From a virus (taxonomy: Duplodnaviria > Heunggongvirae > Uroviricota > Caudoviricetes), in IMG/VR virus record IMGVR_UViG_637000261_000005: a DNA stretch of 33,575 bases; one strand, given 5' to 3'. The position numbers and the translations under genes are program-made. The notes under the pieces are model-generated. The model saw only the letters and a program-made list of their open reading frames with translations. It was not told the origin of the DNA and did no database searches. Positions 480 to 25,340 of the stretch are shown one piece after another (within the stretch, counting starts at the first letter, position 1; each line of letters begins with the position of its first letter).

Positions 480-845
480 ATGATTGATGTCTTAGGGCCG
501 GAGAAACGCAGACGGCGTACCACACAGGAAAGGATCGCAATTGTTCAGCAGAGCTTTGAACCGGGGATGACGGTCTCCCTCGTTGCCCGGCAACATGGTG
601 TAGCAGCCAGCCAGTTATTTCTCTGGCGTAAGCAATACCAGGAAGGAAGTCTTACTGCTGTGGCCGCCGGAGAACAGGTTGTTCCTGCCTCTGAACTTGC
701 TGCCGCCATGAAGCAGATTAAAGAACTCCTGCGCCTGCTCGGCAAGAAAACGATGGAAAATGAACTCCTCAAAGAAGCCGTTGAATATGGACGGGCAAAA
801 AAGTGGATAGCGCACGCGCCCTTATTGCCCGGGGATGGGGAGTAA
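480..845 (+). CDS. insC: IS2 transposase OrfA (InsC)
   Basis: The 121-aa [56 protein letters not shown]... is recognised as IS2 InsC (HTH, IS3 family). Confidence 0.95.
797..803 (+). promoter_or_regulatory. A6G (AAAAAAG) programmed -1 frameshift site joining IS2 orfA to orfB
   Basis: The heptamer sits in the orfA/orfB overlap, as is established for IS3-family elements. Confidence 0.7.
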
Positions 846-1708
846 GCTTAGTCAGCCGTTGTCTCCGGGTGTCGCGTGCGCAGTTGCACGTCATTCTCAG
901 ACGAACCGATGACTGGATGGATGGCCGCCGCAGTCGTCACACTGATGATACGGATGTGCTTCTCCGTATACACCATGTTATCGGAGAGCTGCCCACGTAT
1001 GGTTATCGTCGGGTATGGGCGCTGCTTCGCAGACAGGCAGAACTTGATGGTATGCCAGCGATCAATGCCAAACGTGTTTACCGGATCATGCGCCAGAATG
1101 CGCTGTTGCTTGAGCGAAAGCCTGCTGTACCGCCATCGAAACGGGCACATACAGGCAGAGTGGCCGTGAAAGAAAGCAATCAGCGATGGTGCTCTGACGG
1201 GTTCGAGTTCTGCTGTGATAACGGAGAGAGACTGCGTGTCACGTTCGCGCTGGACTGCTGTGATCGTGAGGCACTGCACTGGGCGGTGACTACCGGCGGC
1301 TTCAACAGTGAAACAGTACTGGACGTCATGCTGGGTGCGGTGGAACGCCGCTTCGGCAACGATCTTCCGTCGTCTCCAGTGGAGTGGCTGACGGATAATG
1401 GTTCATGCTACCGGGCTAATGAAACACGCCAGTTCGCCCGGATGTTGGGACTTGAACCGAAGAACACGGCGGTGCGGAGTCCGGAGAGTAACGGAATAGC
1501 AGAGAGCTTCGTGAAAACGATAAAGCGTGACTACATCAGTATCATGCCCAAACCAGACGGGTTAACGGCAGCAAAGAACCTTGCAGAGGCGTTCGAGCAT
1601 TATAACGAATGGCATCCGCATAGTGCGCTGGGTTATCGCTCGCCACGGGAATATCTGCGGCAGCGGGCTTGTAATGGGTTAAGTGATAACAGATGTCTGG
1701 AAATATAG
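803..1708 (+). CDS. insD: IS2 transposase OrfB (InsD), DDE integrase-like domain
   Basis: The 301-aa ORF ends ...[32 protein letters not shown] and is recognised as IS2 InsD. Confidence 0.95.
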
Positions 1709-1719
1709 GGGCAAATCCA

Positions 1720-1915
1720 ACGGGATGCCCTCTGATGAGTGAATGGGGGAGGCGTGCTTTGAAGTGAATTTGTGGAAGGCTTCCAGTGTTGAGAAACATA
1801 CGCCGCATTCTAGATTGTTACACTGATAATACTTTTGTCTCACGGTGTTTGAATCATTTTCCGGACGACTGGTGCGGATACGGGCAGATGCGCCACAAAG
1901 CGGACAACGGAACAT
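1720..1915 (-). pseudogene. ogr: Ogr late-gene transcription activator (zinc finger), 5' 65 codons, interrupted by IS2
   Basis: MFRCPLCGASARIRTSRPENDSNTVRQKYYQCNNLECGVCF... carries the CxxC...CxxxxC pattern and aligns with P2 Ogr (MFHCPLC...YHQCQNVNCSATF). The last 13 codons of the tracked 78-aa ORF ([12 protein letters not shown]) are read from the IS2 end. Confidence 0.85.
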
Positions 1916-2050: not shown

Positions 2051-5000
2051 TTATTCTGATGTCACTCTTTGCGAGTGAGCTATTTTTAAATCAGCGTTTC
2101 CTTCAAATACTATATTCAACTCATAGTTAAGAGTTAGCTTGAATTTATCTGAGTCACTTTTGATATTCTCTGAAGTGACATTTACTAACTTATTATTATC
2201 ATATTCTCTAATAATTAATTTAGTGAAGTAGTTATCCTTTACCACAAGAGAAAATGGTTGATTAACAAATGGTAAGAAGTAAACCTTACGGGTACCGGAT
2301 TCAGTAGTTATGTTCATAGAGCCATCATCATTTTTTCTCATTAGTTCTCTGAGGTTGGGATTATCGAAAAGCATACGATTATATTGCTGAAAGATCTCTT
2401 TACTCATCACAAGAACCAGTTTGCCAGCCAAGTCAGCAGATGATTTTATGTGATCAATCAACATATTGAAATCTTCTATTACGGTATGTTGCGAACAGCC
2501 AGTGCTAAATAAATTTGAAAGTATTATTCTCTGGATGTCCTTGAGAATTAAGTCTGCTTGAATATCACCTTCATTGATATAAGGGATGGATTCTATTCCT
2601 TCGGCATACGGTTCTTTATCTATCTTAATAGATATCTTATGTTTTGTGAAACAATCGCTAGCCTGCTTAAAATCAATAGATTTGAAAAGTGAAAGAGGGA
2701 GCGTTTTCTTGATGCGTTTACGAAGATGTTCTGATGTTTTACGTGCAGTGCTATCTAGTCGATGTACATCTATGGCAGCATCCTGAAGTCTCATATCAAG
2801 ATCTTTCTTTAGCATGTTAATATGCTCTTGAAGCAACTTTCTTAAGTTTTCTTTTTTTGTTTGGAGATCGTCCAATGTTAAAGTCAGCTTGATTTTAGTG
2901 TATTCGATGGAGTTACAAATTTTTGATAATACTCCAATGAGTCGTTGCTTCTCACGATATGTTATATAGTTGTTTTCTATTGCTTCTTTTATTTCTTTTG
3001 ATACGCTATCGTTCTTTTTAGAAAAAATTAATAATAGCTGAACCCATGATTGTTCCATATCAATAAATCCACAGTCAAAAACATTACTGTAAACTCTGCC
3101 CATCACCATGTCTGTTTTATCATAGTCACGTAAACGCCTTGCTAAACTATTCATCCACCCATTGTGCTCCATATTTTCAGACCATGTCCACAGGCAGATT
3201 CTAATTAATATCTTGATTAGTTGGCTTGCATTATCAATTTCTTCAGTGGGAGTTTCATATCCACCGGTTTGGTCAATAAGTTTACCCTCTAAAATAAGTT
3301 TAATGTAATGTGTCATTAGTTTGTCAGAAGTATTGATTCTTGATGTCAGATAAAGACATGTGCATATACGCATGTCAGTCAACGCATTTATGATGGCAAT
3401 ATTGAACCACTCTCTGTCTGAATTGAAGTTTAGTTTTTTGGATATGAAAAAACCCGGGTTAAAAAGCTGGCCTTTGTAACTGTATTTTTCTACCGAATGG
3501 CTGTCAATATTCATTGAGTGCTGCCATCGGTTAATAAGATCGACGGCTGTATCAATAGTAGAAGGATCGCGAGTCTGTGTTGCATCAATAATCATCGATG
3601 GAAGTTCTTGTAGTTGCGTTTTGCAAAATAATTCAAATAAATCTGAATTCTCTGTATTGCAGAAACGAAAGTTTATGCTTTCTTGATATTGCTCCCAAAC
3701 AGTGATATAGGTTCTTAATATACGATTATAACGTGAACGAAGCGAGGCATTTAAGAGTGATTGGTTGTTTCGGAACCATTCTGTTAATATTGACCATTGT
3801 GAACGAGTAATTCCCATATAGATACAAAGTTCATTGCTGATAAGATGTTTTCTATTATTGATAATACGCACTCCGCTCCAAAGACATAATTCAAAAAATC
3901 TTTCAGAAAGATTAATTTTATCCATGGAATTATTTGATATTTTATAAACTTCATCTGAAAACTCATATTGAAAACTCCGTTCAAATAATTCTGTAGTGAT
4001 CAGTAAGAAGTTATTGTTGGTATTATCATCTTGAAAAAAATACAAATCGCAGAGATTATTAAAGTTATTAATTAATGCAGAGATAGCATTGTCAAAACTA
4101 ATGAGATCAGAATCCCGCAGATACATATACGTATCTGCTGTTATAGCCTGCATTGTAAGACTTACGGAAAAATCTCCTCCTTTAATCGGAGCCCTATAAA
4201 AACATTGCTTAAGTATTTTTATTAATAAGCTGTCTGGTTTGATATTTTTAACGCTAAAAAGTATCTTACCCGTGGATTCTGTTTCTTTTGTACGATTATC
4301 ACCAATGACAAATGACGCAAAATGATTCTTCTTTTTTAGTTGGTAATTAATAAGATTAAGAGTAAGTTGAAAAGGACGGTGATATAAACTTAACTCATCT
4401 TCCTTAGAATAACTGCTAGCCACAGATATGTATTCTCCTTTGTAATCGGCTTGCGTGATTTCTAAATTTGAATAGTTATGTTTTTGATAGATAGGGTATA
4501 ACCTAAGCTTGGCTGAGATTTTGTTACAAATATGGGGCATTACTATTTCGAAGGCAATGTATCGCTTTATAATTATTTGCCGTTTTACATCATCAAGAAT
4601 TTCAAGACTCACGATAAAGAACCAAATAGAAAGAACTATGTTTATCAAAAGCCATAATATGCTGATTAGACAAGCTATACCATAAAGATAACTTCCAAAG
4701 ACAGTTTTAATTAGTACACTGAGAAGTATAAATCCTGATAAGAAAAGCCCGCTGAGTCCAGCAAGCATGAATCCTGAGTAACGCTGATAAGCAGTTTGGG
4801 CTATTTTTCTATCTGCCTTTTTTTGGAATAAGACACTTACTAAACCTATAACAAGGGGGTATACAATACCAATAATTGTCAATTGGCCACTTAAAATGGT
4901 TGTTTGCCATTCGGTTAATGAATGCCTAAACGGGAAATAATGTAAAAGATTATTTTTTATAAATAATTCGTTTAAATATCCAACATAAAGTAGTACAAAT

Positions 5001-5170
5001 GAAAAAGCTGATATGCAAAGTACTGATTTAACCGGTGAGGATGTTAATCTTATGATGTTTTTTTCAATAAAATTCCATTTTAAATTCGAATAAAATGGAT
5101 TTTTAACCATTTTATTACGAACATAGTTCTTTGCTAAAATCTCTGTTGCACTTAAAAATTGTCCAATCAT
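2051..5170 (-). CDS. Uncharacterised 1039-aa membrane protein (4-5 N-terminal TM helices plus about 840 aa of soluble, largely helical region); prophage cargo, function unknown
   Basis: A 3.1-kb uninterrupted ORF lies in about 28-32% GC DNA (my hand count of sampled lines), where stop codons should be frequent. Hydrophobic segments occur at about aa 49-66, 91-115, 132-154 and 160-190. A heptad-like charged stretch spans about aa 762-822. I found no Walker A, HExxH, nuclease, TIR or SIR2 signature. Confidence 0.9.
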   Translation of the reverse strand: MIGQFLSATEILAKNYVRNKMVKNPFYSNLKWNFIEKNIIRLTSSPVKSVLCISAFSFVLLYVGYLNELFIKNNLLHYFPFRHSLTEWQTTILSGQLTIIGIVYPLVIGLVSVLFQKKADRKIAQTAYQRYSGFMLAGLSGLFLSGFILLSVLIKTVFGSYLYGIACLISILWLLINIVLSIWFFIVSLEILDDVKRQIIIKRYIAFEIVMPHICNKISAKLRLYPIYQKHNYSNLEITQADYKGEYISVASSYSKEDELSLYHRPFQLTLNLINYQLKKKNHFASFVIGDNRTKETESTGKILFSVKNIKPDSLLIKILKQCFYRAPIKGGDFSVSLTMQAITADTYMYLRDSDLISFDNAISALINNFNNLCDLYFFQDDNTNNNFLLITTELFERSFQYEFSDEVYKISNNSMDKINLSERFFELCLWSGVRIINNRKHLISNELCIYMGITRSQWSILTEWFRNNQSLLNASLRSRYNRILRTYITVWEQYQESINFRFCNTENSDLFELFCKTQLQELPSMIIDATQTRDPSTIDTAVDLINRWQHSMNIDSHSVEKYSYKGQLFNPGFFISKKLNFNSDREWFNIAIINALTDMRICTCLYLTSRINTSDKLMTHYIKLILEGKLIDQTGGYETPTEEIDNASQLIKILIRICLWTWSENMEHNGWMNSLARRLRDYDKTDMVMGRVYSNVFDCGFIDMEQSWVQLLLIFSKKNDSVSKEIKEAIENNYITYREKQRLIGVLSKICNSIEYTKIKLTLTLDDLQTKKENLRKLLQEHINMLKKDLDMRLQDAAIDVHRLDSTARKTSEHLRKRIKKTLPLSLFKSIDFKQASDCFTKHKISIKIDKEPYAEGIESIPYINEGDIQADLILKDIQRIILSNLFSTGCSQHTVIEDFNMLIDHIKSSADLAGKLVLVMSKEIFQQYNRMLFDNPNLRELMRKNDDGSMNITTESGTRKVYFLPFVNQPFSLVVKDNYFTKLIIREYDNNKLVNVTSENIKSDSDKFKLTLNYELNIVFEGNADLKIAHSQRVTSE

Positions 5171-5260
5171 GAATTACTCTTCTATAAAGTGTGGGTCTAC
5201 TAACTAAACTGGAACTTTTACTATTGAGTCATATTCCCTTGGACGGGATGGACTGTGAAG

Positions 5261-5266
5261 ATTATA
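5261..5266 (-). promoter_or_regulatory. Perfect TATAAT -10 hexamer about 90 nt upstream of the cargo ORF (weak -35)
   Basis: The minus strand reads ...CCCACATGACAGAGGAAGTCAAGTATAATCTTC. This is the only consensus -10 I see in the 248-bp AT-rich gap 5171-5418. Confidence 0.25.
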
Positions 5267-5418
5267 CTTGACTTCCTCTGTCATGTGGGAAAAACATCCG
5301 TATTATTGTTAGCATCTGGTTGATGCCCCAACCTCTGACATCTAGTGGGCTGATACATTATCTTTTGTTCTTACTGTCAGTGTAGAAGCACATCTCAAAA
5401 ATAATATTTTTAAGAGAT

Positions 5419-6528
5419 TTATTCTGTTTCTGCTATCCATTCCGGGATTTTTGCTTCAAGTTCAAGCTGCGTGGTAAAGCCGCTGTTATCAATGGTGTGC
5501 TCGGCTTTTGCAATAGTCCAGTCCTGATAATCAATCTCGCTTTTAAAGCCTGTCACTGTGCCATGCATTTCGGGATAGAGTTCTGCACGACCACGCGCCA
5601 GCGTGATGGAGAATGATGCGGCTCCGCGTTGTAGCTGCTGCCACTTTGCCGCCGCTGCGCGTCTTGCTGCCTGCTCGTTCTGATAAGTCTTGCGTAACAC
5701 AAACACGTTGCCTTCCGCACCTTCCATATAGTCGCCTTCCCGACTGCTGCTTTTCTCCTTTTTGGGTTTTGGCGGTTTGCGGCGTTTCACGCTGACTTTT
5801 TTCTTTTTCCCGTAATTAAGATCAAGCCAGTAGGCGCGTACCCCCGTATACGCCTCGCGGTCAGCAATGCGGAACTGATGGCGATCGCCGCTGCTGCGTG
5901 TAATGGCGAACGAGGGCAACGGCTGCCCCTGTGCGTTCACGCCACCACCTGGCATGATGAATAACAGATTGCCGCTTTTTACCGTGGCGATTGCTCCCAG
6001 CATTTCCGCCATGCGCGTAAGAAAGGACATGTCGCTTTCTTCGGTCTGGTCGGCGTGGTCGATTTCGATATCCATCAGCATTTCGCTGATTTGCGGTTTC
6101 AGACCGTACCGATGAGTGATGGCGGATACCACACGCTCAACGGTCACATCATGCCAGGACACCTCACGTTTAACGTTAAATTCATCCCGAAAATCTGCGC
6201 TTCTGGCTGAAACAGTCAGCCTGTCCGGCGGTCCTTCGTGAGCGATTTCATCAACAATGTAAGTGCCTTTTTCTGTCAGCGGTTCCCCTTTCCAGCCAAT
6301 GAGAACCGTCAGACGCGCGCCCCGTGGCGGTAGCTGCAACTGACCATCCGCATCATCCAGCGTGATGGTGAGCTGGTCCGCCTCAAATCCCCGGTTGTCG
6401 GTCAGTTACAGGCTCATCAGGCGCTCCGCCACGCCTGACAGCGTTTTACCCTCCGAGAGAATATCAAAATCCGGCATTTTCACGGGGGCCGTGCCCTGAC
6501 TGAGCAATTGCATGGTGGTGTCGGTCAT
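5419..6528 (-). pseudogene. D: Tail protein gpD with an in-frame TAA after codon 40
   Basis: The two tracked ORFs (6406-6660 and 5419-6339) are in the same frame. Reading through gives ...GVAERLMSL*LTDNRGFEADQLTITLDDADGQLQLPPRGARLTVLIGWKGEPL..., which is colinear with P2 gpD (..RRLISLTMTDNRGFEADQLDIELDD..). The stop is at 6408-6406. The ATG at 6528 is preceded by GGGAGGGAG. Confidence 0.85.
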
Positions 6529-6582
6529 CTGCTCCCTCCCTGTGCGGCATGGTCGCATGTGCGTGCGGAGGGGGTTACTGCT

Positions 6583-6608
6583 TTTTGTTGTCGCCGTGGC
6601 GGGAGAAC
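6583..6608 (+). promoter_or_regulatory. TTTTGTTGT-N12-AGAAC element in the D|FI divergent intergenic region; candidate Ogr-responsive late promoter site
   Basis: The same 9-mer, 12-nt spacer and 5-mer recur at 25253-25278 in the O|P intergenic region. It resembles the TGT-N12-ACA dyad established for P2 late promoters but reads TGT-N12-AGA. Confidence 0.4.
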
Positions 6609-6685
6609 GGCGCAGGGGTGAGATTACGCGCGTGGTGGGTGATGATTGTTGCTGAATCATTTAACGGATACAAGGGGCTGAAGCT

Positions 6686-7870
6686 ATGAGTGAAACTCGT
6701 TTTCATGGTGCCCGTGTTACGGAGAATACCGACCTGGTAACAGCGATTAACGATGTTGATTCCAGCGTTATCGGTATCGTGGCAACGGCGGATGATGCGG
6801 ACGCGAAGCTGTTCCCGCTGAACAAGCCCACACTGCTGACCCGCGTCAATGACGTGCTGGGAAAATGCGGGACAACGGGGACGCTTTATCGTGCGCTTAA
6901 GGCCATCGCAGACCAGGTGAGCACAAAGGTGATCGTCGTTCGCGTGGCTGAACACAAAGAAGAAGACGGAAAGACGCAGGATCAACTGGTTATCGGTGGT
7001 TCTGAGGATGACGGCAGCTATACGGGGATGTATGCGCTGCTTGTTGCAGAGCAGGATGAAAGCATCGGATACCGTCCGCGTATTCTGGCCGCGCCGGAGC
7101 TGGACACGGAGGCGGTAACAAAATCCCTGTGCGTGATTGCAGATAAACTGCGCGCGTTTGTGTATGCCTCATGTCATGGCTGTAACACGATGGCCGAGGC
7201 AATTACCTACCGCCAGAAATTCAACGAACGTGAGGTGATGCTCTTATGGCCGGACTTCATCGCCTACAACCCGAAAAATGGCAAAAACGAAACGTTCCCC
7301 GCGCCTGCCTATGCGTGCGGCCTTCGTGCGTACATTGACCATGAACAGGGATGGCACAAATCGCTGTCCAACGTTCCGGTTAAAAATGTGCTGGGGATGT
7401 CGAGGCATGTGTTCTGGTCGTTGCAGGCCGAAGACAGCGATGCCAACAGCCTCAACGACAAAGAAATCACGACCATTATTCGTCGCAACGGGTTCCGCTT
7501 CTGGGGTAACCGCACACCGGAAACGAACGCCTACATCTTTGAGGTGTATACCCGAACCGCACAGGTGCTGGCTGATTCAATTGCGGAAGCGCAGTTTGAA
7601 ACCATCGACAGTCCACTGACGCCTGCGAATGTGAAGGATGTTATCAGTGCCATCAGGGCAAAACTGGATTCACTGGTGACTGCCGGGAAACTGATTGGCG
7701 CGGAGTGCTGGTATGACGTGGTGGATAACAGCACCACGGATTTACGTCAGGGACGTGTGCGTATTCGCTACAAATATACGCCCGTTCCGCCACTGGAAGA
7801 CATGGAGCTTTACCAGACGTTTACTGATGAATACTTTGAACCCGCATTTGCGGTGCTGGGAGGTGCCTGA
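6686..7870 (+). CDS. FI: Contractile tail sheath protein (gpFI)
   Basis: 394 aa, the size and sequence character of P2 FI. It is followed directly by tube, E/E', T and U. Confidence 0.9.
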   Translation: MSETRFHGARVTENTDLVTAINDVDSSVIGIVATADDADAKLFPLNKPTLLTRVNDVLGKCGTTGTLYRALKAIADQVSTKVIVVRVAEHKEEDGKTQDQLVIGGSEDDGSYTGMYALLVAEQDESIGYRPRILAAPELDTEAVTKSLCVIADKLRAFVYASCHGCNTMAEAITYRQKFNEREVMLLWPDFIAYNPKNGKNETFPAPAYACGLRAYIDHEQGWHKSLSNVPVKNVLGMSRHVFWSLQAEDSDANSLNDKEITTIIRRNGFRFWGNRTPETNAYIFEVYTRTAQVLADSIAEAQFETIDSPLTPANVKDVISAIRAKLDSLVTAGKLIGAECWYDVVDNSTTDLRQGRVRIRYKYTPVPPLEDMELYQTFTDEYFEPAFAVLGGA

Positions 7871-8380
7871 TGGCTGTGCCAAAACATCTTCGCTTTTTTA
7901 CGCTGTTTGTGGATGGTGAAAACGAAGTGGGTAATGTGACGTCCGTCACTCTGCCTAAGCTGACGCGCAAAACCGACAGCTACCGGGGTGGTGGCATGAT
8001 GGGTGCGGTAAGTATTGATCTCGGTCTGGACGACTCCGCGCTTGATGCGAGCTTTGTCATGGGGGCGCAGTTCGTGAGCTGTTCCTTAAGTATGGCGGCA
8101 CGATTGACGGCACGCTGCTGCGTTTTGCGGGTGAATACTACACCGATGCAGAAAGCGACCTGTATGAAGTCGAAATGCGCGGACGTGTGACGGAAATTGA
8201 TATGGGGGAAGCCAAACAGGGCGAAGCCACATCACACACTTACGCCATTAAAACACCTACTACAAGCTGAGTGTTAACGATCGCCCGTTGTGGGAGATTG
8301 ACCTGCTGAACTTCATTTACCGGAAGGACGGCAAGGACATTGTGCCCGATCGCATCCGTTCCGCGCTTGGGCTTGGCTGA
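7870..8380 (+). pseudogene. FII: Tail tube protein (gpFII) with two frameshifts
   Basis: Frame 0 reads MAVPKHLRFFTLFVDGENEVGNVTSVTLPKLTRKTDSYRGGGMMGAVSIDLGL...ASFVMG. Homology continues in a second frame from about 8070 (VRELFLKYGGTIDGTLLRFAGEYYTDAESDLYEVEMRGRVTEIDMGEAKQGEATSHTYAIK). It then moves to a third frame from 8258 (YYKLSVNDRPLWEIDLLNFIYRKDGKDIVPDRIRSALGLG*). The shifts lie near the G5 run at 8061-8065 and near 8250-8258. Confidence 0.85.
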
Positions 8381-8435
8381 TAAGTAATATGCTGGCGGCG
8401 CAGTGCGTCGCCTCTGACTGAAAAGGAGACAACAG

Positions 8436-8810
8436 ATGAAAGACATCGATACTGAAACCCGGAATAACACCGTGGCGGATAATGTGACGGCAGTTGAGGA
8501 TATGGCTGTCGAACGTGGCGTAAAACTGACCCGACCAATTGAGCGTGGTGCCGAAAAAATCACGTATGTGGAGATCACCGGGGCTATTGAGCAGGCTGGA
8601 TCCCTGCGTGGTCTGTCGCTGTCTGATGTGCTGAATCTGAAAGCGGATACCATGTTCACGCTGTTGCCTCGCGTGACCTCGCCACGACTGGATGAAGTGA
8701 TGATTAAAAAAATGTCGTCACGCGATTTTATTCAGTTGTGCGCTGTGGCTGTAAATTTTATGAGCGAGCCAGACTCTGGCGCGAAGAGCGTGCAGGAGAC
8801 GGCAGCGTAA
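8436..8810 (+). CDS. E: Tail assembly chaperone gpE
   Basis: AAGGAG lies 7 nt upstream of the ATG. The stretch ..LRGLSLSDVLNLKADTMFTLLPRVTSP.. is gpE-like. It occupies the position between tube and tape measure. Confidence 0.85.
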   Translation: MKDIDTETRNNTVADNVTAVEDMAVERGVKLTRPIERGAEKITYVEITGAIEQAGSLRGLSLSDVLNLKADTMFTLLPRVTSPRLDEVMIKKMSSRDFIQLCAVAVNFMSEPDSGAKSVQETAA

Positions 8811-8923
8811 TCACCCTGGTGTGCTTTGAGCACATCGAAGATCTGGTGGCGGATATTGCCGCCATTTTTAACTGGTCGCCCGCCGAAATCTTCATGATGA
8901 CGCCCGGCGAAGTGGTTAGCTGA
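8436..8923 (+). CDS. gpE+E' -1 frameshift fusion product
   Basis: The slippery heptamer A_AAT_TTT at 8753-8759 lies in the E zero frame (GTA AAT TTT). The -1 frame then reads KFYERARLWREERAGDGSVITLVCFEHIEDLVADIAAIFNWSPAEIFMMTPGEVVS* and ends 1 nt before the tape-measure ORF. This is the conserved tail-chaperone frameshift architecture. Confidence 0.75.
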
Positions 8924-8924
8924 C

Positions 8925-11768
8925 GTGAGCGGGCGGCACTTCGTAGCGGGAATGCAGACAATGAAGACTCTTGATATCCGGGTCGCTTTCAGCGCCGTTG
9001 ACAGGCTGACCCGGCCTGCCGAAAACGCCCGCCGCCTGATGGGGCAGTTTGGTGACTCCATCCAGCGAACGCAGGGGGCGATCAAAAATCTCGAGCGTCA
9101 GGCGCGATCATTTGAGCGCGCCCGTGACGCTGTCAGTAAAGCGGATGCTGGCATCGTGAAAGCACGACGCCAGCTTAACGCCCTTAATCAGTTACAACGC
9201 ACGGGTACAGTGCTCAGCGAAAAACAACAAAAGCTGATGCAGCAGTTAAGCACCCGGCTTGAACGCCTGAATGAATCGCGCACACGGGAAATTCAGAAAA
9301 TGCGGGAGCTTGGCGGAGAGCTGAAACGCCACGGCATTTCCCTGACAGGTAGCGATAACACCATCCAGCAGGCCATCAGACGCACCGAACAGTACAACAA
9401 CCAGCTTGAACGCGAACGGCAGGCGCTTGCGCGTGTAACACGGGCGCGTGAGCGGTATTCGCGCGCGCAGGAAACAGCGGGAAAACTGAAAACAGGTGGT
9501 GCGCTGGCAATTGGTGCGGCAGCGGCGGGCGGCTATGCTGCCGGGCGTTTTTTGCAGCCTGCGATCGGGTTCGGCAAAGAGATGTCCCGCGTTCAGGCAC
9601 TGACGCGAATCGACCAGAACAGCCCGCAGTTTAAGGCGCTGCGTGAGCAGGCGTTAAAACTTGGCTCTGAAACGCAGTTCACCGCAGGCGATGCCGCCAG
9701 TGGACAGGCATTTCTTGCAATGGCTGGCTTTACACCACAGGCCATTCAGGCTGCGCTCCCTGGCGTACTGAGCATGGCAACGGCTGGCGGTATGGACCTC
9801 GGTGAGACGGCGGATATTGGCTCAAATATTCTGACGCAGTTCGGTCTTTCTGCTGACCAGATGGACCGGGTCGGCGACACACTCACCGCAGCGTTTACCC
9901 GTACCAACACTGACCTTCGCGCACTGGGTGAAACCATGAAATATGCAGGTCCGGTGGCGGGTAAGCTGGGAATATCTCTGGAGCAGGCCGCAGCGATGGC
10001 GGGCGTGCTGGCGAATATGGGTATCAGGGGGAGTGATGCTGGTACGGCAATGCGTGCCAGCCTGGCTCGTCTGGCATCACCGCCAAAGGCGGCAGCAGAG
10101 GCGCTGAAAGAGCTTGGCGTGTCTGTCTCGGATGCCGGGGGCAAAATGCGCCCGATGGAGGATGTGCTGGCTGACCTTTATAAAGCTACCCGCAAATACG
10201 GGGAAGTTGACCGGGTATCGTTCTTTAAGGACATTGCCGGAGAAGAGGCTTTCACATCATTTATGGCCCTCGTTGATGCGGCAGGTGACGGCTCCTTACC
10301 CAAACTGAGAAAAGAACTTGAAGGCGCGCGCGGTGAGGCTGAACGCACGGCAAAGGTTATGGCCAACAACCTTGACGGCGATCTGAAATCACTCAGCAGT
10401 GCATGGGAAGGGTTGCGCATCCGCATTGCAGATCTGATTGACGGTCCGCTGCGTTCTGTCACGCAGTGGCTCACGCGTGTGGTATCAAAGGTGACGGCGC
10501 TGGCGCAGGCCCATCCCGCACTGACGCGCCAGCTACTGATTGCAGGCGGTGCATTGCTGGCAATGACTGCAACGGTTGGCTCGTTGTCGCTGGCTATTGG
10601 TGTGCTTGCTGGCCCGCTGGCAAAACTGCGTCTTGGTTTTTCCCTCCTGACCGGATCAATGAATGCTGTCAGGGTTCTGCCAGCACTATGGGGAATGGTG
10701 ACGGGTTCCGTTTCTTTACTGGGAGGCGCTATCGGGGCGTTGTTCAGTCCGGTTGGTCTTATCGTGGCTGCGCTTGCCGGAGCTGCCGTTCTTATCTGGA
10801 AATACTGGGATCCCATCAGGGCATTTTTTGCCGGGGTGTTCAGCGGGATTATGGAAAGGCTGACCCCGTTGCGCGAAACCTTTGAACGGTTTGGTCCTGT
10901 TTTTGACGCAATCGGGAGTGGGATCAGCCAGGTGTTTAACTGGTTTAAATCGCTGCTGTCACCGATGGAGTCCAGCAAGGAAACTCTGGATAAATGTACC
11001 AGTGCTGGCGAGATATTCGGTAACGTTCTTGGCGGTGCGTTACAACTTGTTCTGACACCTGCAAAAATGTTGCTGGATACGCTGGCGTGGATACTTGAAA
11101 AGCTTGGTGTGCTTCCGGATGAAGCGGAAAGGGCGCGCAAGAAAATCGAAGACGCACAGCGTGCGGCCATTCTTCAGGACAAGGTTGCCTTGCTTCAGGG
11201 GGATCTGGCGAAAATCAATCCGCCGAAGCCTGTGGAAAATGGCAATGGCACCGGAGGTGATAACCCCAAAGACAATAAACCGCTCACAGACAGCAATACC
11301 GGTACGCTGCGCAGACTCAGCAAAATTGCTGATAACACAGGTAAGCTGGTTGAGGAGACGAAAAAACGCATTGGCCCCGGCGATATTGTCTTTAAAAACC
11401 TGCCCCGAGCACTTGCTGTTCGTGGGGAGTGGCAGGAGCGGAAGATTGCGCAGGTCAGTAAGCCTGCCCCCGCAATTAATATCACACCCGTGGTTCCGGC
11501 TCCGCTGCCTCCGGCGCTGGTCCCTGTTGTTGCAGCCAGCTCCCGCCCGGTGGCGGAGGCTATACGATCTCCAGTGGCATCAGTTCCTGTAACTTCCCGT
11601 AACCGGGAGCCTGTTGCCTTCGGATTTGGTGGTGAAATTCATGTTCATCTGCATAACGTTGTTACGCAGAATCCCCGCGAACTGGCGAAACTGGTCGGTG
11701 AAATGGTCAGGGCAGAAATGGAACGGCGCGCCCGTGCCGGGCGTGGCTGTTTTTACGATAAAGATTGA
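8925..11768 (+). CDS. T: Tail tape measure protein (gpT)
   Basis: 947 aa. It has an N-terminal coiled-coil character and a central Gly/Ala-rich hydrophobic block, and sits after E/E'. The true start may be the ATG at 8952 or 8961 rather than the GTG at 8925. Confidence 0.9.
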   Translation: MSGRHFVAGMQTMKTLDIRVAFSAVDRLTRPAENARRLMGQFGDSIQRTQGAIKNLERQARSFERARDAVSKADAGIVKARRQLNALNQLQRTGTVLSEKQQKLMQQLSTRLERLNESRTREIQKMRELGGELKRHGISLTGSDNTIQQAIRRTEQYNNQLERERQALARVTRARERYSRAQETAGKLKTGGALAIGAAAAGGYAAGRFLQPAIGFGKEMSRVQALTRIDQNSPQFKALREQALKLGSETQFTAGDAASGQAFLAMAGFTPQAIQAALPGVLSMATAGGMDLGETADIGSNILTQFGLSADQMDRVGDTLTAAFTRTNTDLRALGETMKYAGPVAGKLGISLEQAAAMAGVLANMGIRGSDAGTAMRASLARLASPPKAAAEALKELGVSVSDAGGKMRPMEDVLADLYKATRKYGEVDRVSFFKDIAGEEAFTSFMALVDAAGDGSLPKLRKELEGARGEAERTAKVMANNLDGDLKSLSSAWEGLRIRIADLIDGPLRSVTQWLTRVVSKVTALAQAHPALTRQLLIAGGALLAMTATVGSLSLAIGVLAGPLAKLRLGFSLLTGSMNAVRVLPALWGMVTGSVSLLGGAIGALFSPVGLIVAALAGAAVLIWKYWDPIRAFFAGVFSGIMERLTPLRETFERFGPVFDAIGSGISQVFNWFKSLLSPMESSKETLDKCTSAGEIFGNVLGGALQLVLTPAKMLLDTLAWILEKLGVLPDEAERARKKIEDAQRAAILQDKVALLQGDLAKINPPKPVENGNGTGGDNPKDNKPLTDSNTGTLRRLSKIADNTGKLVEETKKRIGPGDIVFKNLPRALAVRGEWQERKIAQVSKPAPAINITPVVPAPLPPALVPVVAASSRPVAEAIRSPVASVPVTSRNREPVAFGFGGEIHVHLHNVVTQNPRELAKLVGEMVRAEMERRARAGRGCFYDKD

Positions 11769-11774
11769 GGAGTC

Positions 11775-12269
11775 ATGGCCATGATGATGATCTACGGCAT
11801 GTTTGTTTTTGAGCTGCGCACGCTGCCGCATCAGCAGTTACAGCAAAACAAAAGCTGGCGGCATGTGAAAAATGAACGCGTTAACCGTTCAGCAAGCTGG
11901 CAGTATATCGGTGCAGGTGATGATCGCATCGTTCTTTCTGGTGTGCTTTATCCTGAAATTACAGGTGGCGAAGTGTCGCTGTCGCTGCTGACTACGCAGG
12001 CGTATACAGGACGACCCTGGCCTTTGATTGATGGCGTCGGGCAGATTTACGGCATGTATGTCCTGACTGAAACGAATACGACCCGCTCCGAGTTTGATCG
12101 CTACGGTAAGGCGAAAAAGATAGAATTTTCACTGACTCTTGAACGCTGTGATGAGGATTTGCGGGAGCGCCTGCAATCCTCATCGTTCAGTGATATGCTG
12201 TCCGGCTTCAAAGATAAGGTGACATCATCTCTTAACAGCGCGGCCAGTTCAGTTAAAGGGCTGTTCTGA
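11775..12269 (+). CDS. U: Tail protein gpU
   Basis: MAMMMIYGMFVFELRTLPHQQLQQNKSWRHVKNERVNR... aligns with P2 gpU (MMMVLGLFVFMLRTVPYQELQYQRNWRHASNSRVNR..). Confidence 0.9.
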   Translation: MAMMMIYGMFVFELRTLPHQQLQQNKSWRHVKNERVNRSASWQYIGAGDDRIVLSGVLYPEITGGEVSLSLLTTQAYTGRPWPLIDGVGQIYGMYVLTETNTTRSEFDRYGKAKKIEFSLTLERCDEDLRERLQSSSFSDMLSGFKDKVTSSLNSAASSVKGLF

Positions 12270-12277
12270 TTTAACAC

Positions 12278-12308
12278 AAAAACCGCTAATGGTCAGATTA
12301 GCGGTTTT
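12278..12308. terminator. Bidirectional rho-independent terminator shared by convergent gpU and the invertase
   Basis: AAAAACCGCTAAT-GGTCAG-ATTAGCGGTTTT forms a 12-bp stem with T-rich tracts on both strands. The invertase stop codon lies in the right arm. Confidence 0.7.
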
Positions 12309-12915
12309 CATTTTCCTGAGTCTGCCCGGTTGTTTCTTCAGTCTGTATATCGCCTACAGGGTGATAACGATAAATCGTCGATGTGCCAATGCCGTAAATT
12401 ATTGCCAGTTGTTTTCTGTCGTGCCCGTTTTTGATTAGCCTTGCTATTTGCTCATGCTGTTCTTTTGTCAGCTTCGGTCGACGTCCGCCTGTGCGCCCCC
12501 TTGCGCGCGCTGCCGCCAGCCCGGCCAGTGTACGTTCAACAATTAATTCACGTTCCATTTCAGCCAGGGCACCCATCACGTGGAAGAAAAAACGCCCCAT
12601 TGGAGAAGATGTGTCTATGCTGTCGGTCAGACTGCGAAAATTAATCCCTCGCTCCCGTAGTTCCCCGACGAGAGAAATCAGATGTTTCATGCTTCGCCCG
12701 AGGCGATCCAGTTTCCAGACAACCAGCGTGTCACCTTTTTGAAGGCGCTTTAAAGCGCGTTTTAATCCCGGTCGGTCTGTCTTTGTCCCGCTTAATTTAT
12801 CTTCAAATATTTGTTCACATCCTGCACAAACAAGAGCGTTTTGTTGCAGGTCTGTATTCTGGTCATTTGTTGATACCCTTACATAGCCAATCAGCACACT
12901 GAATCTCCCGTCCAA
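12298..12915 (-). CDS. pin: Serine DNA invertase of the Gin/Pin/Cin/Hin family
   Basis: ..LIGYVRVSTNDQNTDLQQNALVCAGCEQIFEDKLSGTKTDRPGLKRALKRLQKGDTLVVWKLDRLGRSMKHLISLVGELRERGINFRSLTDSIDTSSPMGRFFFHVMGALAEMEREL.. is near-identical to Mu Gin as I recall it. The functional start is probably the GTG at 12897 (VLIGY). Confidence 0.95.
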   Translation of the reverse strand: MDGRFSVLIGYVRVSTNDQNTDLQQNALVCAGCEQIFEDKLSGTKTDRPGLKRALKRLQKGDTLVVWKLDRLGRSMKHLISLVGELRERGINFRSLTDSIDTSSPMGRFFFHVMGALAEMERELIVERTLAGLAAARARGRTGGRRPKLTKEQHEQIARLIKNGHDRKQLAIIYGIGTSTIYRYHPVGDIQTEETTGQTQENENR

Positions 12916-12951
12916 AAGCGCAAATCATGCCATGCAGGCCAGAAACGGCCA

Positions 12952-12977
12952 TTATTTAAAACCTCGGTTTACGAGAA
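12952..12977. promoter_or_regulatory. gix/pix-like recombination site (TTATTTAAAACC-TC-GGTTTACGAGAA)
   Basis: A 12+2+12 layout with AAACC/GGTTT half-site cores and a central TC. It closely resembles the Mu gix site TTATCCAAAACC-TC-GGTTTACAGGAA and is inverted relative to the site at 15631-15656. Confidence 0.85.
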
Positions 12978-13673
12978 CTCGGCACAAGCGGGGAGAAAAT
13001 ACCGTTACTCAGTACAGCGAATACCTGGACCAATCGACAAACATTCAGCGGTGGCCTTTCTGGGGAACTGTCCGGCAATGCCGCTACTGCAACAAAGCTG
13101 AAAACAGCACGAAAAATTGCTGGAGTTGGTTTTGATGGTTCTAGCGATATCTCAATTAGTGCCAAAAATGTCAATGCATTTGCACTCCGACAAACAGGTA
13201 ATACTGTTAATGGTGATACATCCGTTGGATGGAATTGGGATAGTGGTGCATATAACGCCCTGATTGGTGGTGCATCTGCATTAATTCTTCACTTTAATAT
13301 AAATGCTGGTAGCTGTCCTGCCGTACAATTCCGTGTGAATTATAAAAATGGTGGCATTTCCTACAGGTCGGCTCGTGATGGTTATGGGGTTGAATTACGT
13401 TGGTCAGATTTCTATACCACGACACGAAAACCTTCAGCGGGAGATGTTGGTGCATATACGCGGGCAGAATGTAACTCAATGTTTATTACAGGTATTCGCC
13501 TTGGCGGTCTGTCATCTGTTCAGACATGGAATGGTCCCGGCTGGTCTGACAGGTCAGGTTATGTCGTTACGGGTTCAGTTAACGGAAACCGTGATGAATT
13601 AATTGATACAACACAGGCAAGGCCAATTCAGTATTGCATTAATGGGACGTGGTATAACGCGGGGAGTATTTAA
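12963..13673 (+). CDS. Silent alternative tail-fibre C-terminal cassette (no start of its own; would fuse to the gpH constant part after inversion)
   Basis: The frame is open from the crossover site. After inversion the fibre would read ..VIEYLGL|RELGTSGEKIPLLSTANTWTNRQTFSGGLSGELSGNAATATKLKTARKIAGVGFDGSSDISISAKNV...RPIQYCINGTWYNAGSI*. Its C-terminal motif parallels the expressed ..[17 protein letters not shown]. Confidence 0.8.
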   Translation, partial: LGLRELGTSGEKIPLLSTANTWTNRQTFSGGLSGELSGNAATATKLKTARKIAGVGFDGSSDISISAKNVNAFALRQTGNTVNGDTSVGWNWDSGAYNALIGGASALILHFNINAGSCPAVQFRVNYKNGGISYRSARDGYGVELRWSDFYTTTRKPSAGDVGAYTRAECNSMFITGIRLGGLSSVQTWNGPGWSDRSGYVVTGSVNGNRDELIDTTQARPIQYCINGTWYNAGSI

Positions 13674-13675
13674 CG

Positions 13676-14209
13676 ATGATGCACTTAAAAAACATTACTG
13701 CTGGCAACCCTAAAACAAAAGAGCAATACCAGCTAACAAAGCAATTTAACATCAAATGGCTTTATTCAGATGATGGAAAAAACTGGTATGAGGAACAAAA
13801 GAATTTCCAGCCAGACACTTTGAAAATGGTCTATTACCATAACGGCGTTATTATTTGTATTGAAAAGGATGTTTCAGCAATTAATCCGGAAGGCGCAAGC
13901 GTCGTTGAATTACCTGATATTACAGCAAATCGCCGGGCTGATATTTCGGGGAAATGGTTGTTCAAAGATGGCGTAGTGATAAAGCGAACTTATACCGAGG
14001 AAGAGCAGAGGCAACAAGCGGAAAATGAAAAGCAAAGCCTGTTGCAACTTGTCAGGGATAAAACCCAGCTATGGGACTCACAGCTACGGCTGGGCATCAT
14101 TTCCGACGAGAATAAACAAAAATTAACCGAGTGGATGCTCTATGCGCAGAAAGTCGAATCTACAGACACCTCCAGCCTGCCAGTAACGTTTCCCGAACAA
14201 CCAGAATGA
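13676..14209 (+). CDS. Tail fibre assembly protein (Mu U / Tfa family), silent orientation
   Basis: [40 protein letters not shown]... has the typical Tfa N-terminus. The gene is intact at 177 aa. Confidence 0.9.
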   Translation: MMHLKNITAGNPKTKEQYQLTKQFNIKWLYSDDGKNWYEEQKNFQPDTLKMVYYHNGVIICIEKDVSAINPEGASVVELPDITANRRADISGKWLFKDGVVIKRTYTEEEQRQQAENEKQSLLQLVRDKTQLWDSQLRLGIISDENKQKLTEWMLYAQKVESTDTSSLPVTFPEQPE

Positions 14210-14237: not shown

Positions 14238-14846
14238 TTACTCAGGCTTTTGTGGCCATTCGGGATTTGCTGTATCCACACGGCTGACCAGAACGCTGTA
14301 GCGTTCCCATGACTCCAGTCGTGTGCGTTCCTCATCCATCGCCATATTCAGCCTGACAGCGCGTTCCAGTGGCTGAATAACGCTTTCAGCTTCAGAAAGC
14401 AACGCGACCTTTTGTGATTCGGCCTGTTGTTGCTGTTCGTCTGCTGTATAAATCCGCTTAACCACAGTTCCGTCCTTAAACATCCACTTCCCTGAATCAT
14501 CGGCACGACGATTGGCTGTTATATCTGGAATCTCAACGACACTAAAGCCTTCGGGATTAAGTGTTGGGGCATCTTTGGTTATGGCAACAATAATATTATT
14601 TTCGTCGTATACAATCTTTATGGTGTCGTCCTGAAAGTTATTTACTTCCTCATACCAGTTTTTACCGTCTTCGGACCATAACCAGATAACATCAAAATTC
14701 TTTGTTAGCTGATATTGTTCTTTTGTTTTTGGATTTCCGGACTTAATATTTTTTAATATGCTGCATAATTTACACCTGTGCGACGTTATACCATGTGCCA
14801 TTGATGTATTTTTGTATTGGTCTGAAGATGGCTTCATCATCGCCAT
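14238..14846 (-). CDS. Tail fibre assembly protein (Tfa family), expressed orientation; start codon problematic
   Basis: ..[62 protein letters not shown]... is TfaE/Mu U-like. The expected ATG (14766, MQH..) is out of frame by 1 nt. The only in-frame ATGs (14801, 14846) lie inside gpH. Confidence 0.75.
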
Positions 14847-16920
14847 CTACTTCACCAATGATTCTTAATCCGGTAATTGCGTGTCCGGCTTTTTCATAAC
14901 GACCACCACGCGCCATCAATTGAACAACACGCGTACCCAGGCGAACATCTTTTACATAGCGTGAATCAAAATTCCCCCAGTTGCTGGGCTGTATCTGACC
15001 GTTAACAGAAAATATTACCGAGTTATCTGTATTTCGCTGGCTATAGAAATGCCATCCTGCCTCATTGCCTAACTCTGCAACTACTGGACGGGTTGAAGCA
15101 CCCCATAAATTAAACGTTGCATTCTTTGTGGAGTTGTTGGAGCTGGATAGCGTGAATTTTTTACCATCCCCGGCCTGAATATTTTTAAAAGCAATAGCCA
15201 CTCCATTCTGAAAGCGGAATACACGCTGACTATTAGCATAAACATCCAGAATACCGTCTCCATTCTGTTTAAATCCGGTGTCATTATCACCAAGAACAAT
15301 AGAGCTACCACCTAACGCATTCGTCGAACCAACTCCAAGACTGCCATTAATGACAGCATTAACAAGAATATTTAGTGCATCCCATTTCAGCGTCATCAGG
15401 TCTTTTGTTGTGGTGCTCTGGCGGCTTCTCCATTTGAAATATTCATTGCCGTTGTCGCCTGTTTCAAACCACATGTATGAATCAGTGTCACCATCGGCAT
15501 CATTTTTAAATCCAATCTTCGCCCAGTCAGTATTTCGAATCCAGGCAAGGATTGAGTCATTTTCAAAAGTAAGCCCACCGGACAAGGTATCGCCATTTTT
15601 TTGCACGGCGTTACCAGCCCTGTTTACCGTTTCCTGTAAACCGAGGTATTCGATAACGGCAGCAACGGTCGATTTCGCAAGAATATCCCGCCCGACTTTT
15701 GTCAGGGTTGCCAGGCTGGCGACATCATTCCCCGTAAAATACGGAAACCTGTCTGCCGCAGTAGCAAGCCCGGCCAGCGCCGTCAGGGTGGCATCTTTCG
15801 GTTGCTTACCCGCAAGCGCGTTAGTCATGGTGGTCGCAAAATTCGGGGCGTTTCCCAGCGCCGCCGCTAACTCGTTCAGCGTATTCAGTGCGTCAGGTGA
15901 CGAATCTACAAGGGCGGCAATCGCAGCCATAACGAAAGCCGTGCTTGCGATTTGGGTATTATTCGTTCCCTGTCGCGCAGCTGGCGTTGTTGGCGTTCCG
16001 GTCAGCGCAGGACTGTTTAAGGGCGCTTTCTTGTTCGTTTCATCCATTACCGCCTTAACCGCTTTCGATGTCGCGGCCAGTGTTTCAGACGTGCTGTTGG
16101 TGGCACTACTGAGCTGGACTATCCCTTTTTGTGCCGTCGTGGCGTCCTGAGCGGTATATTTTGCGTTAGCAAGGTCATACGCGGCCTTTACTGCTTTCGG
16201 CGTTGCAGCCTGCGTTTCAGACGTGCTGTTGGTGGCGCTACTGAGCTGGACAAGGCCTTTTCGCGTCGTGCTGGCATCCTGCGCAGTATATTTACCGTTA
16301 GCAAGATCATACGCGGCCTTTACTGCTTTCGGCGTTGCAGCCTGCGTTTCAGACACGCTGTTAGTGGCGCTACTGAGTTGAACAAAGCCTTTTGCGGTCA
16401 GCGAGGCGTCCGGGTGACGTCGTGACTGTTCATGCTCTTTCAGTTTGTCATCCACGTAATCCACTGTGGCCATCACCATGGTGTTGTCCACGGTAAGCGC
16501 CACGGTGGCAGTGCTGGATACGGTCAGAATGGTGCGAAATGTTTGTGCACGACCGGACCCTTCGGCAACGGCTGGCTTGTAACTTTCGGCAGTATTTCCC
16601 ACCGCGATTAAATCGCCGTGCTCATCAAATACACCAATTTCCCGGATCCAGAATCCGCCCGTTTCAGGAGGAATAACCAGCTCCGCAATAATGCGGTTCT
16701 GATGTGTTGCGTCCAGGATGACGCGATTAACAGTATGTCGCCACACCTCATGCACCAGACGGGTCTGCTTACTGTCTGGTGTGGGCAACGTGCCGCCACC
16801 GTCGCCCACGGCCATATGAGTCAGGCGGACAGGCTTACCATCTGGCGCGGCTACCTGAGCTAATTTTTTTGCACCCGTATCGGTGATAATGGTTTTAAAT
16901 TTTCGTGTTGTGGTACTCAT
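14770..16920 (-). CDS. H: Tail fibre protein gpH (P2-type N-terminal domain; Mu S-type C-terminus supplied by the invertible segment)
   Basis: 716 aa. The N-terminus [43 protein letters not shown] is gpH-like. The gix-like site falls at ..[10 protein letters not shown]... Confidence 0.9.
15631..15656. promoter_or_regulatory. gix/pix-like recombination site inside gpH (TTCCTGTAAACC-GA-GGTATTCGATAA)
   Basis: Nearly identical to the Mu gixL sequence TTCCTGTAAACCGAGGTTTTGGATAA as I recall it. It is the inverted partner of 12952-12977. Confidence 0.85.
16045..16392 (-). repeat. 132-bp (44-aa) tandem coding repeats in gpH, about 2.6 copies
   Basis: [44 protein letters not shown] / [44 protein letters not shown] / [27 protein letters not shown].. 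. This is the known phage tail-fibre repeat motif. Confidence 0.85.
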
Positions 16921-18345: not shown

Positions 18346-18696
18346 TTACTCCCTCAGCGTGATGGTTAATTCAACATTCTGCATGGTCTGCATGACAGTG
18401 CCCGACAGCGTCACCCCGGCGCGGCCTCCTGCCTTCCAGACAACGTCGATAGCGTCCAGGGCAATGCGGGGTTCCCATCGTGTCAGCGCAATCACGGCAG
18501 CACTCATGCATTGCAGACGCGTGGTGTTATTCATGGGTTCGTCAATCAAATCAGGCACAAGGCTGCCATATTCCCGTCGCATAACCCGGCTTGCCAGCGG
18601 GGTGGTCAGGATGTCCCTGACTGACTGTTTCAGGTGCTCCATATCGTTCAGGTTTCCCGTTCCGTCCGGGTTCATTCCTGTGTAGCGGGTTGTCAC
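18346..18696 (-). CDS. W: Baseplate protein gpW (gp25-like)
   Basis: 116 aa, between V and J. Confidence 0.85.
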   Translation of the reverse strand: MTTRYTGMNPDGTGNLNDMEHLKQSVRDILTTPLASRVMRREYGSLVPDLIDEPMNNTTRLQCMSAAVIALTRWEPRIALDAIDVVWKAGGRAGVTLSGTVMQTMQNVELTITLRE

Positions 18697-19274
18697 TGCG
18701 GGCCTCCTGTCGAATCGCTGCCACCTTTAACGCCACCGTGTTTATGCGTATGCACTGTGATGCCGTTTGAGGTGAAATTGCCGCCGCTGTGCGTGATATT
18801 GCCGCTCATCTTTCCCCCTTTTGTGACGTCAAGCGTCGCCGTTCTCAGAAGGTCTGTGCATTCCACGACGGGCGTATCCAGTGTCACGCTGACGGATGCC
18901 TGCAGGGTGGCTGTTTTCATGCCGCTGGCGCTCAGTGCGCCTGCGTCCGCGTCGTAGCGGAACACCGCGCCATCCGGCGCGCTGACCACGATTTCTTTCA
19001 GGCTTTTGCCGGGGGCCGGAATGGCATCACTCCACAGGCTGCCAATTATCATGGCGGTTTCCGGGTTGCCGCCAATGCAGGCAATTACCACCTGTTCGCC
19101 TGGTGATGGCGGCAGCCACACATTGAAGGCTCCCGCGCGAGAGGTGTTCCAGCGCAGCCAACCTGTTTCCAGTTCGCCGCTGCGAACGCGCACGCGCCAG
19201 GACTTCTCATCAACTTCAGAGATGATCCCGGTGCGGATGATATTGCTCAGTAGCCGCATGAGTTCTGCGCTCAC
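18693..19274 (-). CDS. V: Baseplate central spike protein gpV
   Basis: 193 aa. The stretch ..GELETGWLRW...GEQVVIACIGGNPETAMIIGSLWSD.. is typical of gpV. Confidence 0.85.
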   Translation of the reverse strand: MSAELMRLLSNIIRTGIISEVDEKSWRVRVRSGELETGWLRWNTSRAGAFNVWLPPSPGEQVVIACIGGNPETAMIIGSLWSDAIPAPGKSLKEIVVSAPDGAVFRYDADAGALSASGMKTATLQASVSVTLDTPVVECTDLLRTATLDVTKGGKMSGNITHSGGNFTSNGITVHTHKHGGVKGGSDSTGGPQ

Positions 19275-25186: not shown

Positions 25187-25252
25187 AGTTTTTGCCCCTC
25201 TGACTGGTTCTTCAGTCATGATGGCAAAGCGTAACAGGCTGATACAAAGGGC

Positions 25253-25278: not shown

Positions 25279-25340
25279 AGAGGGTTAAGGAGAACAGTTT
25301 CGCGCGCGGGTAATCTTCCTGTAATTACTCAGGGGGAGCA

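Follow-up and report, generated by a model that had tools for sequence, protein, structure and literature searches.

Inverted FI-U tail-gene block as probable lineage synteny in a P88-like prophage, with a candidate bidirectional late promoter between D and FI

Introduction

In the reference record of phage P2 (NC_001895), the late genes V W J I H G fun(Z) FI FII E E' T U D ogr follow one another on a single strand. The stretch of DNA analyzed here, 33,575 nucleotides (nt) of a virus of the class Caudoviricetes (IMG/VR record IMGVR_UViG_637000261_000005; hereafter, the window), departs from that order in its tail genes: FI-FII-E/E'-T-U (6686-12269) are on the plus strand, and D, a serine DNA invertase gene, G/H, ogr and a cargo open reading frame (ORF) are on the minus strand. 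Compared with P2, FI-U is therefore reversed: D and FI point away from each other across a gap of 157 bp, and U and the invertase gene point towards each other. Is this order an accident of one genome or of its assembly, one state of a programmed switch, or the regular synteny of a lineage, and from where would D and FI be transcribed? A previous reading based on the letters alone (the sequence-only reading) had offered two explanations, an old inversion that was accommodated, with D now served by a bidirectional late promoter region, or a module order distinctive of the lineage. Our results indicate, with high probability, that the inverted block is the normal, fixed order of the P88-like clade, which most likely goes back to one old inversion that included the late promoter pF and would have left mirror-image late promoters between D and FI.

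Results

Gene identities were assigned by means of an ORF map, PHROG and Pfam family scans, and tblastn searches with all P2 late proteins. Beyond H, the minus strand continues with I, J, W, V and the head genes up to O, while P and Q are located on the plus strand, further along the window. P2 (Peduovirus) and the window agree with regard to gene set, the internal order FI-FII-E-E'-T-U and a pF-type dyad ~83-88 nt upstream of FI. In P2, however, FI-U has the same orientation as V-G, the F operon closes with D, and the coding sequences of U and D abut without a terminator; in the window, by contrast, FI-U is reversed, D forms a divergent unit of its own, and a predicted terminator follows U. 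The canonical synteny, in which FI-U and D share the strand of V-G and D directly follows U, was not found in the window. The sequence-only reading had described the sheath-tube-E-T-U module as inverted, given the single-strand order of P2 and placed U towards the invertase gene and FI away from D; family scans, tblastn, NC_001895 and the gene coordinates and strands agreed with it on each of these points.

The window is a P88-like (Xuanwuvirus) P2-family prophage. Positions 5000-14000 showed 93-98% nucleotide identity, over 77-95% of their length, to P884B11, phiSM, P88, 520873 and other Xuanwuvirus phages, and the D(-) / FI-U(+) / invertase(-) order of the type phage of this genus was present, as judged from the annotated P88 and phiSM records and the tblastn map. 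In particular, Escherichia phage P88 and Citrobacter phage phiSM, which are 95-98% identical to the window across 5424-14000, carry D on the minus strand, FI FII E E' T U on the plus strand, the invertase gene on the minus strand, an invertible tail-fibre segment and H, together with the same 157-bp D-FI gap and the same dyad in it. P88 is mitomycin-C inducible and plaque-forming, with a burst size of ~65 and a contractile tail in the electron microscope (PMC5285337), and phiSM, for which spontaneous release is reported, likewise forms plaques and establishes lysogeny in K-12 strains (PMC6456863). The sequence-only reading had proposed that an order shared by many intact, inducible relatives would be normal lineage synteny rather than a rearrangement event. 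As such relatives do share it, with inducible P88 and spontaneously released phiSM among them, we regard the order as lineage synteny, and the notion of a rearrangement event is refuted.

The frequency of both junctions was determined in complete E. coli genomes. Of 5426 such genomes, 1355 had a contiguous D-FI junction (window 6250-6950; identity ~95% or higher), and 621 had a contiguous U-invertase junction; in the remaining genomes, the U-invertase match ends just past the U stop codon and is followed by different cargo. No colinear alternative was present among the 1373 E. coli records matching the D-FI junction, 1357 of which shared the junction of the window. The difference in order from P2 is all that would speak for an assembly error, or for a 5.6-kb inversion that is recent and confined to the window genome. 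Given that the two junctions are contiguous, at 95% identity or more, in so many complete E. coli genomes (1355 and 621) and are the same in independently sequenced, annotated functional phages (PMC5285337, PMC6456863), both explanations can be considered excluded for all practical purposes. Furthermore, the short inverted repeats or insertion sequence (IS) scars for which the sequence-only reading had suggested searching were found at neither junction. Among the 25 longest inverted-repeat pairs listed in 6350-12450, which were scattered chance matches, none had its arms in the D-FI and U-invertase gaps.

The position of the invertase gene, which abuts the U end of the block, could suggest that FI-U is a programmed invertible segment flipped by this enzyme. 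We consider the chance of this to be vanishingly small, since the crossover sites bracket the tail-fibre segment only: the core motif occurs in the window at 12948-12977 and 15631-15660, plus one match with 2 mismatches at 20476, and no crossover site was present at the D-FI or the U-invertase junction. Similarly, none of the listed inverted repeats links the two gaps, the uniform junction of the matching E. coli records (1357 of 1373, with no alternative) leaves no sign of a second orientation, and clade members without an invertase, namely an O157:H7 locus and SEN5, keep the same inverted order. The FI-U block is thus neither switching nor misassembled. With regard to the tail-fibre segment itself, it is of the Gin/Cin/Pin type and comprises ~2.7 kb between the two gix-like sites; alternative C-termini of H are encoded in it, together with two genes for tail fibre assembly (13676-14209, plus strand; 14238-14846, minus strand), and the segment is 88-93% identical to the invertible-segment regions of Mu, D108 and P1.

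The distribution of the order outside E. coli was assessed in 80 loci, obtained from a one-genome-per-species scan with an alignment of Xuanwuvirus and P2 D proteins and mapped locally by tblastn. All 48 sampled loci whose D was 61-98% identical to that of Xuanwuvirus were inverted, with J-I-H-(G) on one strand and U-T-FII-FI on the opposite strand, followed by D-ogr. They span more than 20 enterobacterial genera, including Salmonella, Edwardsiella, Serratia, Erwinia, Pantoea, Enterobacter, Klebsiella, Kosakonia and Brenneria, as well as Pectobacterium, Symbiopectobacterium, Xenorhabdus, Photorhabdus, Providencia, Morganella, Hafnia and Yersinia. Loci with a P2-like D (46-54% identical to Xuanwuvirus D) were colinear wherever FI lay within the fetched DNA. 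The inverted FI-U block between G and D was also present in Salmonella phage SEN5 (Senquatrovirus) and Enterobacter phage phiT5282H (Novemvirus), which belong to two further genera of the International Committee on Taxonomy of Viruses (ICTV); unlike in the window, their D is only 62-77% identical, no invertase lies by U, and U converges on a tail fibre assembly gene. The order is therefore clade-wide in a large, old branch, and the P88-like group occurs in about one quarter of complete E. coli genomes. The two explanations offered by the sequence-only reading both hold and describe one and the same thing.

Neighbour-joining trees of D and of FI, both unrooted, each contained the exact split between 47 inverted and 23 colinear loci. 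In view of this clean separation, a single ancient inversion, fixed in a major enterobacterial clade, is the most likely origin suggested by the sequences. The colinear order is likely the ancestral state, since Pseudomonas phiCTX and a Mannheimia phage, two distant Peduoviridae, are colinear. When compared with P2 by tblastn, the FI-U and D proteins were ~33-48% identical (from T to D), the other core structural proteins ~26-61%, and H and G 83-91%. P2-like phages are mosaic, and the fact that H and G are far closer to P2 than their neighbours (~45%) implies that exchange does occur in such phages; FI-U could accordingly have been acquired, already reversed, from another phage lineage. Such a module swap is nevertheless quite improbable: FI, FII, U and D have diverged from P2 to the same extent as Q, P, N, V, W and J, and the trees of D and FI yield an identical inverted/colinear split. 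The equal divergence of FI-U and the other core proteins instead argues for a block that was probably inverted in place and not imported from a foreign source.

The D-FI gap (6529-6685, 157 bp) and the O-P gap (25187-25340, 154 bp) had been reported in the sequence-only reading to share a central element. Both gap sizes were confirmed, and CTTTTGTTGT-N12-AGAAC was found in both, at 6588-6608 and 25258-25278, respectively; exact TTGT-N12-AGAAC has only three matches in the whole window. P2 late promoters are Ogr-dependent, with the consensus TGT-N12-ACA upstream of the late operon and centred at about -55 (PMC3931495; NC_001895 annotation); for the window, such a position is predicted. The dyad of the window, TGT-N12-AGA, is one base off this consensus, and its position relative to the ATG agrees with that of P2 pF: its centre is located 88.5 nt from the ATG of FI (82.5 nt for pF) and 69.5 nt from that of D. 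Distant members of the clade carry the canonical ACA. We compared 51 inverted loci, 48 from the genome scan and one each from the window, P88 and phiSM, and one dyad was present at the same position in 44 of them. In the inverted loci with a dyad, its centre was 74.5-88.5 nt from the FI ATG and, in nearly all of them, 64.5-82.5 nt from a D ATG preceded by a Shine-Dalgarno sequence (with L049, at 55.5 nt, as the outlier).

Hexamers at the spacing expected for -10 elements were counted in 27 dereplicated inverted loci, with 16 dereplicated colinear loci as a control. On the FI side, 25 of the 27 inverted loci had an nAnnAT hexamer whose start lay 43.5 nt from the centre of the dyad; on the D side, nAnnnT was located at 43.5 nt in 22 and at 44.5 nt in the other 5. 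The colinear control had the FI-side hexamer in 15 of 16 loci, but only 2 of 16 had one on the upstream side, equivalent to the D side. In P2, NC_001895 annotates one activator site for the divergent promoters pP and pO, whose start sites lie 55.5 nt to either side of its centre, and the hexamers are TAGCCT (pP), GAAACT (pO) and CAATCT (pV), at 43.5 nt, and GAAAAT (pF), at 44.5 nt. The D-FI gap resembles this pP/pO region in having one central dyad of the TGT-N12-nCA type, hexamers 43.5 nt to both sides and a length of ~150-170 bp; pP/pO serves P and O, whereas the gap in the window would, by this likeness, serve D and FI. Of 18 dyad-like motifs in the whole window, two had correctly spaced hexamers, those of the D-FI and O-P gaps, and both were two-sided. 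Moreover, the Ogr_Delta gene of the window is intact. Taken together, the conserved geometry of dyad and hexamers, the match to P2 pP/pO, the colinear control and the presence of an Ogr_Delta gene lead us to infer that the D-FI gap is a mirror-symmetric, bidirectional late promoter of the Ogr type. The proposal of the sequence-only reading that D is served by such a region is thus supported by comparative geometry.

Alternatively, the order could be lineage-typical while D uses a promoter of its own or another mode of expression, so that the central position of the dyad would be incidental. In favour of this, the D-side start site is a prediction, GACCAT is a weak -10 hexamer, and the implied D leader, which carries GGAGGGAG, has a length of 14 nt. 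Nevertheless, we consider it rather unlikely, as the D-side hexamer is present at P2 spacing in 27 of 27 dereplicated loci in spite of their divergent flanks and is absent upstream of pF in colinear phages, and as the distance between the D ATG and the dyad is constrained. In addition, a sigma-70 scan of the D-FI gap detected no promoter-like site reading towards D.

At the other end of the block, the sequence-only reading had noted a 12-bp-stem hairpin common to U and the invertase gene, and we indeed found a perfect 12-bp stem with a 6-nt loop, nine bases past the U stop codon (12279-12308), for which a terminator role is predicted. For the plus strand, the folding energy was -15.7 kcal/mol, with a z-score of about -3.5, and for the minus strand -17.1 kcal/mol, with a z-score of about -3.7; the TAA of the invertase gene (12298-12300) is part of the stem. 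A/T runs flank the hairpin, whose sequence, AAAACC...GGTTTT, continues as CATTTT in the plus-strand direction and as TTTTTGTGTT in the minus-strand direction; a stem followed by a U-tract on both strands, as expected for a bidirectional intrinsic terminator, is thus predicted. In most inverted loci, a strong hairpin of unrelated sequence lies within tens of bases after U. As P2 U and D abut without one, the putative terminator after U appears to be part of the accommodation of the inverted order in the clade. At ~12270-12279 of the window and 9320-9477 of L003, homology among E. coli prophages breaks a few bases past the U stop (about 12274-12276 in the window), and what lies downstream varies, from the invertase gene in the window to an LbetaH-domain gene in O157:H7. 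This break is a recombination or cargo hotspot and the positional counterpart of the Z/fun locus of P2.

The features of the locus are compiled in Table 1.

Table 1. Coordinates of the FI-U block, its neighbouring genes and the predicted regulatory elements in the window
Feature	Position	Strand	Basis or comment
ogr/delta-type late activator gene	1679-1915	-	Pfam Ogr_Delta PF04606, E=4e-14; tblastn with P2 Ogr, 38% identity
Cargo ORF, 1039 aa, variable locus between D and ogr	2051-5170	-	ORF list
D, tail/baseplate hub	5419-6528	-	PHROG 52; intact phiSM orthologue matches Pfam Phage_GPD
D-FI intergenic region, 157 bp, divergent; putative bidirectional late promoter	6529-6685
GACCAT, predicted -10 of D-side late promoter; predicted transcription start site near 6542	6549-6554	-	43.5 nt from dyad centre
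TGT-N12-AGA dyad, putative Ogr-type activator site	6589-6606 (centre 6597.5)		One in the D-FI gap
GATGAT, predicted -10 of FI-side late promoter; predicted transcription start site near 6653	6641-6646	+	43.5 nt from dyad centre
FI, tail sheath	6686-7870	+	PHROG 23, E=2e-128; Pfam Phage_sheath_1, Phage_sheath_1C, Gp18_domIII_N
FII, tail tube, pseudogene in the window	7870-8380	+	tblastn matches in three frames; intact orthologue matches Pfam Phage_tube
E, tail assembly chaperone	8436-8810	+	PHROG 103; tblastn with P2 E
E', frameshift extension	8819-8974	+	Compared with P88 and JNE151685 E' ORFs
T, tape measure	8961-11768	+	PHROG 28; 99% identical to phiSM T; 2808 bp, same in P88
U, tail protein	11775-12269	+	Pfam Phage_P2_GpU, E=5.5e-39
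Hairpin, predicted to terminate both the U operon and the invertase gene (bidirectional intrinsic terminator)	12279-12308		RNA folding, terminator scan
Serine DNA invertase, Gin/Cin/Pin-type	12298-12897	-	Pfam Resolvase and HTH_7; PHROG 125
gix-like crossover site bounding the tail-fibre invertible segment on the left	12948-12977		Inverted repeat with partner 15631-15660
G	14238-14846	-	Family scans, tblastn with P2 proteins
H	14770-16920	-	Family scans, tblastn with P2 proteins
TGT-N12-AGA dyad in the O-P gap, pP/pO homologue, comparator	25259-25276		Matches the dyad of the D-FI gap

The copy of the block present in the window carries lesions, a point that the sequence-only reading had missed. 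At least five inactivating lesions were identified in its late genes by comparison with phiSM, P88 and E. coli JNE151685 and by three-frame translation; P884B11 was left out of the counting because the capsid annotation of that phage is itself broken. In FII, two homopolymer runs have each lost 1 bp, after 8060 (G6>G5) and after 8249 (A5>A4). In E', TGG>TGA at 8921-8923 creates a premature stop, and in D, TCA>TAA at 6406-6408 creates an in-frame stop at codon 41; the relatives have TGG and TCA at these positions. The capsid gene N is split over two frames near 24150, as detected by tblastn. The TAA stop in D was found in none of 1031 E. coli genomes, and only 3 of 1087 were identical in the G5 run of FII, which marks the lesions as private or sporadic. 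Whether they stem from recent decay or from errors in the sequence, the FI-U block as given cannot make a tail. It is in these lesions in FII, E', D and N, and in a different cargo gene between D and ogr, that the window differs from P88 and phiSM.

This cargo gene encodes a protein of 1039 aa with no Pfam or PADLOC match and may be an uncharacterised lysogenic-conversion or defence gene. A sigma-70-like promoter match (5386-5357, minus strand) is located just upstream of it, and in relatives the D-ogr locus holds other cargo, such as ParA (L004) or hok/gef (P88). An IS3-family element (480-1708, plus strand) is located at the left prophage edge, directly adjoining or overlapping the 3' end of ogr; it consists of orfA (480-845) and orfB (803-1708), and rve, rve_3 and HTH_21 domains were identified in the latter. 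The right edge (33429-33569, plus strand) yielded a short C-terminal integrase-like match only (P2 Int residues 276-323). No P2 A-type replication gene was detected in the window, and the early region appears either to differ from that of P2 or to be rearranged or truncated.

Discussion

In order to account for both the inverted order and the geometry of the D-FI gap, we propose that an ancient inversion took the FI-U block together with its pF promoter. One breakpoint would have been located a short distance upstream of the pF activator site and the other between U and D, which would have put pF back to back with D. A single palindromic dyad in the 157-bp gap would then serve two mirror-image late promoters, as in P2 pP/pO, one driving FI to U and the other driving D and possibly reading towards ogr. 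The FI-U transcript, which in P2 continues into D, would now end at the hairpin that would also terminate the converging invertase gene.

Several points weigh against this scenario. The dyad reads AGA, and not ACA, in the closest relatives, and the predicted D leader, of ~14 nt, is short. The promoter and terminator functions are read from the geometry of the sequence. The sample of 80 loci was collected with two D peptide patterns and ranked by similarity, which makes it a biased survey, and the polarity of the inversion depends on two outgroup phages and on unrooted trees. Finally, the order is known in the sense that it is visible in deposited annotations, and no paper that discusses it was found in the library searched.

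With regard to this last point, we rate the inverted FI-U order as already known, because it is plain in the deposited annotations of three ICTV genera. A discussion of it was found neither in the literature on P88, phiSM, SEN4/5 and Burkholderia P2-like phages nor in that on Xenorhabdus tailocins, global P2-like virus diversity and P2 defence hotspots. Only the putative D/FI promoter with its shared dyad and the two-dyad late layout that it suggests are mildly new elements.

This layout can be taken one step further. The palindromic nature of the Ogr site may have made pF inversion-ready, so that one inversion sufficed to create a second bidirectional promoter of the pP/pO kind and, with it, a late programme run from two dyads; we give this extension about even odds. 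The O-P and D-FI dyads would then feed four transcription units without a separate pV, and D and ogr would be on a late unit of their own, a rewired arm of positive feedback. No description of such a two-dyad promoter architecture was found for the clade in the literature searched. As a separate observation, no pV-type late promoter of P2 was found in the window (18693-20366, minus strand), where R/S-like genes run into V without an intergenic gap. Because no correctly spaced dyad exists outside the O-P and D-FI gaps and there is no gap before V, the genes from O to G may form one long late unit in the lineage of the window.

Being the standard arrangement in a prophage group that is very common, the inverted FI-U block carries little weight as a discovery. 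For annotators and for synteny-based P2 detectors, it implies that the inverted order is not to be taken as a rearrangement or a misassembly. FI-U orientation is, moreover, a clean marker that divides the enterobacterial Peduoviridae into two deep clades, and the D-FI gap would be a compact second candidate example, besides pP/pO, of one Ogr dyad serving two divergent late promoters.

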